Shown here: piece after piece, positions 25,827 to 27,512 of the stretch
How positions within the stretch are numbered: the stretch's first letter is position 1
Layout: the number at the start of each line of letters is the position of its first letter
Source of the DNA: an uncultured Verrucomicrobiae bacterium
Lineage (GTDB): Bacteria; Verrucomicrobiota; Verrucomicrobiia; Palsa-1439
Assembly: GCA_963812605.1 (NCBI GenBank)
Contig: CAWEWF010000001.1
Span: 608,001-672,000 of the forward strand
DNA length: 64,000 nucleotides
Direction: 5' to 3'
Position numbers and translations under genes: made by a program
The notes under the pieces: model-generated
Told to the model about the DNA's origin: nothing
Database searches by the model: none
The model's input: only the letters and a program-made list of their open reading frames with translations

Positions 25827-25867
25827 GGGGGGGGGGGGGGGGGGGGGGGGGGGGGGGGGGGGGGGGG
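25827..25867. repeat. 41-nt poly-G tract opening the C-depleted region
   Basis: Direct count of the G run. Confidence 0.95.
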
Positions 25868-25918
25868 AGGAGAGAGAGTGGGGATTAAAGAGTAAAAAGG
25901 ATCTATGAAGGAGAAAGA

Positions 25919-27472
25919 ATGATGAGTATGATTGCTGTAAGTAATTAGTAAAGATTAAAAGAGTAGTTTGAGTAGATAGGGAAATGTTGAGTTTGAGGTA
26001 AGGAGATTATTTATGTGTGTTTTAAGAAAAAAATGTAGTTGAATAGATGATAGGGTTGGTTTAGTTTATTTAGGAAGGGTTTTATAGGGATGAATAATTT
26101 ATTTATATGTAGATGATTAGATAGTGGATGAGTTGGTAAGTAGTTTGGATAAGAAGGGATTAATGTAGGTAAGGAAATTAAATAGGGTGTTAAACTATGG
26201 AAGTGTAAGGAGTGGTGATAATAGGGAGAACTGAAATAGTTAGAAAGTTACTTTAGGTTAGTGAGTTTATTTAGGAGGTTTTAGGGTAAGTTTAAAGGTA
26301 TTAGTTTGTAGTGGAAATGATATGGATTTTAGGTAAGGATATCACTGTTAACTGTTTTGAATATTGGGAGGTGATGATTAATAAGTTTTTTGAAATGGAA
26401 TTTTTAGGAAGGATAGTTTGTTAATATAATAGTAGTAGTTTTTAGTTAGAAGTGGTTCTGGTGGTGTTGTATAAGTATTAGAAGGTTATTTTGGGTGAAG
26501 AAGTATGTTTTAATTTTTTTTATTAAGAGTTTTTGATTTTTAAGGGCCACAGTTATGGTAAAGTGAAGTAAGTTACAGTAATGTAGAGTAGGTGGATTGT
26601 ATGATTTTTTAATTGAAAAGGGTTAGTGTAGTGGAAAAAATGAGTGAAGAATTGGTTTAGAAAAGAGTGGTGTTTGTTGAAGTGGAAAGATGGAGTTATG
26701 AATTTGAATAGAGGGTGAAGAAGTGGATATTATAATTTTAGGTGGAGATTGAAGAAAGTAAGAGTTTGGAATTTGAAATAGTGAGTGTTGTAGAGTGTTA
26801 ATAGTTTGTTTTGTTTATGAATTGTATGATGGATTTGTTTAGTAATTGAAGTTGATTGTTTATATGATATTGTTTTTGGAGAATTGATTTTAGAAAGTGG
26901 TGTTATTTATTGTGAATTAAGAAAAGTTTTTTAATTATGTTTTTTTATGTAGTAGATTAAATTAGGAATTTGGTGAAGTGATTTTATTTTGTTGAATTGT
27001 AAAAATAAGGATTATTTGTTGTTTTGTATTATATAGTGTGTAATATTTATTAATAGTTTGGGTTGAATTGTATAGTGTAATAGGATATTATATTTTTTTG
27101 TAATTTATAGTTTTAATTGTTATTTAGTTTTTTTGAATTGAGTAAGAAGTAGTGTATAAAGTTATTAAGTATGTTTAGGTGAAGTAGATTTTGATTATAT
27201 TTGTTAAAGTTGATATTAATTTTGTATTTATTGTTGAAGATGATGTTATTGGTTTGTTGTAGAATGTGTATGAGTTGTAAGTGATGTTATTGTGAATTAT
27301 GTAGTATTGTGTGTGATTAATTGGTGTTAAGTTTGAATTTTGTAATTAGAGTTTTAGTGGTGTTATTGTTAGTTGTTTATTTTTTGTTATTGGAATGTGT
27401 TGTTGTATAGGTGAATAGAAAGGGTAAAAGTAAAAAAGTGATGTAAAGTGAGAAGTAGTGATTGTTAAATAA
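25919..27472 (+). other. C-depleted remnant of a MEDS-HisKA_3-HATPase_c sensor kinase gene (boundaries approximate)
   Basis: Restoring C at T/A positions gives GDHLCVF (26002), VEMTWTLG (26311), CQYN (26419), HELHDGL.QQL (26816), IQLFRI.QEAVH.AIKHA (27122), EDD.IGL and IMQYRARLIG. Confidence 0.8.
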
Positions 27473-27512
27473 AGTAATAAATAAATTAATGAATAAAATA
27501 AGTAATACTCCT

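Follow-up and report, generated by a model that had tools for sequence, protein, structure and literature searches.

The window analysed here, a stretch of 64 kb, contains ordinary chromosomal genes on both sides of a segment whose + strand is nearly devoid of cytosine. To the left lie a gene at 22544-24538 (+ strand), disrupted by three one-base deletions at 23139, 23598 and 24238, and an intact gene for an AI-2E family transporter at 24602-25696 (- strand). To the right, an intact gene for a BON-domain protein occupies 27654-28232 (+ strand), and the neighbourhood also includes a large glycosyltransferase-like ORF. The aberrant segment opens with a run of 41 G at 25827-25867 of the + strand, and the 1640 nt that follow on this strand (25868-27507) contain 13 C. 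The initial annotation had described a G run with loss of C up to about 27507, and these coordinates proved exact: the 1681 nt at 25827-27507 are composed of 666 T, 534 A, 468 G and 13 C, with a C share of 27.7% for the whole window. All 13 kept C are located at or before position 26576, so that the remaining 931 nt (26577-27507) are without any C; by our own arithmetic, the chance of such a run at 27.7% C is about 1e-131. The GC skew ranges from +0.83 to +1.00 in the tract and is back to about 0 within 100 nt on both sides. The first C after the tract is found at 27508.

As was also claimed in the initial annotation, the region has no credible reading frame. Indeed, no ORF of at least 80 aa is present between 25697 and 27511, and stops number 62-67 among the 546 codons of each + frame of the tract. 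No second tract of this kind exists in the genome (4.17 Mb, 15 contigs). One-base-free runs of at least 120 nt occur twice in this genome, both times inside the tract, and the 41-G run is its sole homopolymer of at least 15 nt. In 300-nt windows, the tract is the sole region with 8% C or less, and no G-depleted regions were detected in the genome. A plain blastn search of the tract against its own genome returned the self-match only. A by-eye check for a methylation motif that could protect the 13 kept C gave nothing consistent, with just one of these C located in TCTGG.

The kinase gene decoded from the tract

If T or A is read as former C, the tract encodes a histidine kinase composed of MEDS, HisKA_3 and HATPase_c domains. 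According to the alignments of P0257, P0231 and P0024, the predicted gene extends over 25984-27475 of the + strand, its end being approximate, and its start codon is probably the ATG at 25984, the position at which the alignment of P0257 begins. The decoded MEDS sensory domain is placed at 25993-26568 (+ strand) by its score against the MEDS gene L029 and by the presence of PF14417 in the homologues and in P0001. The HisKA_3 dimerisation/phospho-acceptor domain (26799-26996, + strand) and the decoded HATPase_c domain (27122-27388, + strand) were mapped from residues 608-674 and 717-807, respectively, of a paralogous MASE1-PAS-HisKA_3-HATPase_c kinase, which is encoded at 40358-42847 of the - strand and was used as a comparator. 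In the raw tract the H-box HELHDG appears as YELYDG.

The initial annotation had pointed to a parallel with this paralogous kinase and suggested a search in three-letter space, which we carried out with blastn after collapsing C to T in query and genome alike. The region 26733-27406 matched the 3' part of the paralogue gene (70% over 693 columns, E 9e-71), which confirms the parallel for the 3' half, and a second HisKA_3 kinase gene, on contig C6 of the same genome, was also recovered (E 4e-56). We then scored the tract with a codon-level log-odds model based on the codon usage of its own genome. With the C>T collapse the tract reached 375 half-bits against the paralogue, compared with 35-44 for shuffled targets, 42 for the uncollapsed tract and 46-145 for eight other collapses. 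Among the 229 codons aligned to the paralogue, 70 are identical in raw form and 130 are identical or reachable by T>C. Moreover, the stops stand where CAG, CAA or CGA had been expected to fit: when compared with homologue residues, TAG or TAA coincides with Q in 11 cases and TGA with R in two.

For the 5' half, we translated 25984-26640 as written, replacing stops by X, and this query retrieved 143 proteins at E of 1e-3 or below (best 1.7e-27) from 1.84 billion representatives, and the Pfam MEDS family (PF14417) was present in 12 of the 12 best homologues scanned. The hidden MEDS half proposed in the initial annotation was thereby recovered. The decoded MEDS region scored 110 half-bits against L029 (null 28-36), five of eight MEDS targets scored clearly above shuffled controls with the C>T-collapsed tract, and the scores of P0001-P0028 against the tract ranged from 347 to 603. 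The raw tract itself gave no Pfam match, either with MEDS and HisKA_3 or with all Pfam on three frames with X at stops; for HisKA_3 and HATPase_c (PF07730, PF02518), such a lack of matches, in six-frame as in translated searches of the raw sequence, is expected after conversion. Two proteins from soil metagenomes, P0231 (497 aa) and P0024 (453 aa), carry MEDS, HisKA_3 and HATPase_c domains according to precomputed Pfam assignments, and their colinearity with the tract begins at 25981 or 26109 and ends at 27453 or 27475. Together with the MEDS homologues of the 5' half, these colinear proteins of the same architecture confirm the decoding.

Some other candidates and procedures were set aside. 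The alignment of L022, a MEDS gene from the genus, was not above the null and this gene was rejected as a counterpart. The log-odds codon model was preferred to a scoring scheme based on the best BLOSUM value among all possible reversions, which lacked calibration (null near 400). Distant MEDS homologues were not suitable for estimating error rates, since the conversion model and a plain model with 1% error were inseparable on them (110 vs 95). The question of conversion was settled instead by the close orthologue P0001, discussed below.

MEDS domains are sparse in this lineage, being over the cut-off in one of 17 genus genomes and giving matches in six of 301 phylum genomes. The sole strong match in the genus, L022 (G015:C16, 1348-1932), is a 194-aa truncated ORF located beside a transposase-like ORF of 491 aa. 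HisKA_3 kinases are, for their part, represented by four more genes in the 64-kb window, at about 40823-41026, 48624-48827, 55934-56134 and 58729-58929 (648823-649026, 656624-656827, 663934-664134 and 666729-666929 on contig C1 of the genome, G000), with ORFs of 830, 1272, 481 and 608 aa, respectively. Along with the hidden gene, they form a local kinase cluster.

Substitution spectrum against a counterpart with normal cytosines

P0001, a MEDS protein fragment of 224 aa, is encoded on an ENA metagenome contig of 9762 nt and carries PF14417 (E 1.6e-16). It is colinear with 26189-26846 of the + strand at 603 half-bits and represents a near-identical orthologue fragment. Over 221 aligned codons, 114 are identical, 62 are reached via T>C and 28 need A>C, the remainder being 12 unreachable codons and five at frame breaks; outside the frame breaks, 204 of 216 codons are thus identical or reachable by T>C or A>C. 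The spectrum of changes was derived from residues with unambiguous codon positions 1-2 only. All 108 expected A are observed as A and all 64 expected T as T, while the 116 expected G are observed as 106 G, 9 T and 1 A, and the 63 expected C as 51 T, 10 A and 2 C. A/T agreement is therefore 172/172, and all detectable differences fall at C or, more rarely, at G. The lack of any difference at A or T sites indicates no evolutionary divergence, and the original sequence of the tract was the same as that of the P0001 gene. The P0001-matched pieces contain 18 stops, all of them TAG or TAA.

When searched against the tract's own genome, P0001 matched just the tract, in two pieces (51% and 47% identity), the rest being coiled-coil similarity to paralogues. 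No normal copy of the hidden gene was found in this genome by either the P0001 or the three-letter searches, and no near-identical copy was found in JGI metagenome contigs, where 29 loci gave a best match of 75% over 100 aa and 40-64% for the others. Full-length relatives more than 70% identical to P0001 were not found either; P0231 and P0024 are about 58-64% identical to it. The C-terminus of P0001, ...EREQSGSARNCTMDSVRN, corresponds to the H-box region read out of frame. This frame break, at about 26807, is common to P0001 and the tract, and P0257, P0231, P0024 and the paralogue all need a frame shift there. The underlying gene may itself carry a real or systematic indel at 26807.

A similar spectrum was obtained over the whole tract at sites where at least three homologues agree: A is kept at 76 of 76 sites and T at 52 of 52, G is found as 85 G, 10 T and 2 A, and C as 48 T, 9 A and no C (57/57 changed). 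Five one-base deletions occur relative to P0001 in 658 nt, and eight frame breaks relative to the full-length P0231. The C>A changes in the 5' part, the occasional G>T changes and the indels noted in the initial annotation are thus all present, with C>A confined to the 5' part. Tabulating the spectrum and its sequence context, as that annotation had advised, revealed a drift with position as well as an effect of the next base. Indeed, C is kept, and C>A occurs, only upstream of about 26670, most of the G>T changes being found beyond this point. Before 26600, G follows 8 of 14 C>A changes vs 5 of 44 C>T changes (Fisher p 0.001), and after 26600 all 19 events are C>T. The context, however, decides only between the T and A outcomes, and the loss of C itself is context-independent. 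The affected stretch begins about 116 nt ahead of the probable start codon and runs on for about 30-70 nt past the end of the gene; since intergenic DNA is covered on both sides of the gene, the tract is not tied to the coding region.

These figures were compared with what a deaminase would leave behind. An expectation of C>T and G>A changes only failed: of the 63 expected C, 10 are found as A, and of the 116 expected G, nine are found as T and one as A, with five deletions besides in 658 nt. The C>A and G>T counts bear out the earlier argument that deamination alone does not account for such changes. An expectation of partial conversion with a context preference failed as well, with 61/63 and 57/57 C changed and 931 nt free of C.

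Flanking sequence and independent short reads

The left-flank gene at 22544-24538 forms one continuous frame of 690 codons in the related genome G012, whereas it is split into three frames in the window. The base missing at 23139 and at 23598 is a C in G012; the third gap, at 24238, is contradicted by short-read contigs from X1 and X2, which have an additional C after 24237 as well as a C in place of the A at 24241. All three frameshifts are found within 1.1 kb of this gene. The assembly is good elsewhere, ORFs of at least 500 aa making up about 1.48 Mb of the genome, and this abundance of long ORFs shows that the cluster of frameshifts beside the tract is local.

X1, X2 and X3 are three short-read soil runs from one study, in which the flanks are patchily covered at depth 2-5. 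We compared their contigs with 24000-25303 on the left and 27513-29500 on the right. On the left flank they consistently differ from the window at 24047, 24128, 24212, 24237 (the inserted C), 24241, 24438, 24439 and 25103; on the right flank there are 0 differences (27513-28143, 28561-28917 and others). The mapping of short reads proposed in the initial annotation could be achieved in part: contigs fit the right flank exactly and one of them leaves the tract at 27513, but none covers 25840-27495 at 80% likeness or more, an absence which, with flanks patchy at 2-5x, proves nothing. The contig that departs from the window, record 4 of X1 (151 nt, depth 3.7), matches 27513-27612 with 0 differences over its letters 52-151; for the 51 letters that precede them, no fit to the tract at 80% likeness or above was obtained. 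We accordingly place the 3' edge at 27508-27513 (no strand assigned), between the return of the first C and the point from which this contig fits. The X1 sample would thus contain an otherwise identical organism with a different sequence exactly at the tract end. Among 40 relatives, no orthologous locus was found, but single flank genes only.

Origin of the tract

The tract is most likely an aberrant single long-read segment that escaped polishing rather than a trait of the organism. For about 1.7 kb, the contig would follow one or very few aberrant long reads, the assembly being presumably built on a long-read platform. The fault would open with a spurious run of 41 G, after which C would almost never be called, T standing in its place and, over the first 40%, A as well; T would also have replaced some G, and single bases would have been dropped, until normal calling returned abruptly at 27508. 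At about 70-75% identity to the true sequence, such a segment probably did not attract other reads during polishing, and would thus have been kept uncorrected in the deposited genome. The true DNA at this place would be an ordinary gene for a MEDS-HisKA_3-HATPase_c sensor kinase with normal C content. Several observations lead to this reading. The 4.17 Mb of the genome contain one such tract only, and it opens with the sole long homopolymer present; the loss of one base is near-total and context-independent; the spectrum depends on position and on the following base; indels are as frequent as in raw reads; the adjacent consensus is poor and conflicts with a short-read contig; and there is zero divergence from the normal-C counterpart P0001. 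Poly-G-linked junk in other public contigs, described below, was also counted in its favour. A single-molecule basecalling or consensus failure, which the initial annotation had considered most likely, is therefore the best fit to the data, as it accommodates the spectrum together with the indels, and also the poor quality of the left flank and the departure of the X1 contig at the 3' edge.

On the other hand, A, T and most G are called faultlessly. Such clean calls are unusual in a signal failure and would also be compatible with a template whose C had truly been replaced. The exact form of the tract, with normal G and a decodable gene, was found in none of the 22 internal poly-G loci examined, and the accessible parts of the literature on sequencing artefacts hold no description of such a miscall. 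Furthermore, the short-read support comes from one contig of 151 nt at depth 3.7, and the frame break at 26807, being shared with P0001, suggests that some of the indels may be real or systematic. The very clean A and T calls keep alive another reading, namely a faithful read of an odd molecule, in which the + strand of a 1.6-kb segment was truly without C after one-off damage or mis-synthesis. This state could be reached by exhaustive deamination of a displaced single strand, the G run having seeded an R-loop or a G-quadruplex zone, or by strand synthesis without dCTP, with T or A forced opposite G. The strictly strand-specific loss, the untouched A and T, the identity of the affected strand as the coding, non-template one and the position of the G run at the opening of the tract all agree with such a molecule. 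T opposite G is usually a more frequent misinsertion than A, and the excess of T over A among the changed C matches this order. Nevertheless, 97-100% of about 430 C would have been converted whatever their context, and we know of no deaminase with such behaviour. Deamination leaves the C>A and G>T changes and the deletions unexplained, the positional drift of the spectrum suits the state of an instrument better than chemistry, and a run of 41 G is found nowhere else in the genome; a faithfully read odd molecule is thus unlikely. The more specific proposal of a real DNA event, in which the non-template strand of the kinase gene downstream of the G run lost essentially all its C at once, whether a long displaced single strand was attacked exhaustively or the strand was synthesised without dCTP, is to be regarded as quite improbable. 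If true, it would point to strand-coordinated hypermutation on a kilobase scale in bacteria and would represent a striking, novel kind of mutagenesis; the accessible parts of the literature on sequencing artefacts give no account of such a process.

A heritable allele would go one step further, the kinase pseudogene having undergone strand-coordinated mutagenesis of C, for example by an interbacterial or defence deaminase, and having then been fixed by replication. The presence of the tract in the deposited consensus and of an unmutated P0001 elsewhere, as a polymorphism would predict, speaks for this possibility. Yet agreement with P0001 at 172/172 A/T sites means that the event must be extremely recent, and the short-read contig of an otherwise identical strain departs at the tract edge, which would require a different allele. 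Such an allele would also have to combine near-100% conversion with C>A and G>T changes, indels and a 41-G run, and the nearby consensus errors indicate poor data, so that we consider a hypermutated allele very unlikely. A native, selected C-free element, for instance a regulatory or replication zone lacking C on one strand, is hardly conceivable: when decoded one codon after the other, the tract, with its many stops, proves to be a known kinase, its colinear decoding to P0001 contradicts such an element, and relatives were found in none of 40 related genomes.

The aberrant long-read segment remains the preferred explanation, supported but not proven; on this reading the tract is not a real biological feature, and the hidden gene is an ordinary MEDS-HisKA_3 kinase. 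The biology of the organism would then be unremarkable here, with one more MEDS-type sensor kinase. Annotation pipelines, though, will miss the hidden kinase or label the region as non-coding, and the deposited species-representative genome would carry 1.7 kb of corrupted sequence in addition to a frameshifted left-flank gene. Since such tracts mimic APOBEC-like hypermutation, one-strand C-loss tracts should be checked before any biological reading. A useful check combines the search for a normal-C counterpart, the spectrum at A, T and G sites, and the inspection of indels and of consensus errors in the flanks.

Comparison of the tract with known systems places it close to several of them. The MEDS-HisKA_3-HATPase_c kinases P0231 and P0024 have the same domain order and length as the decoded tract, but these genes are readable and the copy in the window is unreadable as written. 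P0001 represents essentially the same gene with normal C, although it covers only 26189-26846 and its frame ends out of frame at the H-box. Bisulfite or EM-seq treatment and APOBEC/AID-type hypermutation produce one-strand C-to-T changes over kilobases, turning CAG, CAA and CGA into the stops TAG, TAA and TGA; they yield C>T only, and the enzymes are context-biased and their conversion incomplete. The tract shares the one-strand C-to-T change and the resulting stops, but adds C>A, G>T, deletions, a leading run of 41 G and a drifting spectrum. In the accessible parts of the literature on sequencing artefacts, no kilobase-scale C-specific miscall is described, and the nearest case, as far as the accessible portion of that report goes, is that of strand-specific nanopore repeat-calling errors at telomeres (10.1101/2022.01.11.475254). 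These errors resemble the tract in the systematic, strand-specific substitution of one base class, but are limited to short tandem repeats, whereas the tract is a unique coding sequence, and nothing in the data examined links this assembly to nanopore sequencing.

The leading G run also links the tract to other public contigs. A scan of species-representative genomes for runs of at least 30 G gave at least 122 stretches, of which 80 loci were examined, 22 of them contig-internal; none of these 22 internal loci had the exact form of the tract, and none contained a C-free tract of at least 150 nt. In six of the loci (L144, L086, L122, L135, L136 and L079), an internal poly-G run of 30-112 nt lies beside hundreds of G-rich nucleotides depleted in one or two bases, for instance at 2351-2950 in L144, where C falls to 3-6 per 150 nt, and at about 2336-2785 of the reverse strand in L086. 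These six stretches are probably other long-read artefacts, and their contigs indicate that poly-G-linked junk reaches public MAGs. Like the tract, they combine an internal poly-G run in a large contig with adjoining base depletion; they are, however, G-rich and seemingly undecodable, whereas the tract has normal G and a gene that can still be read.
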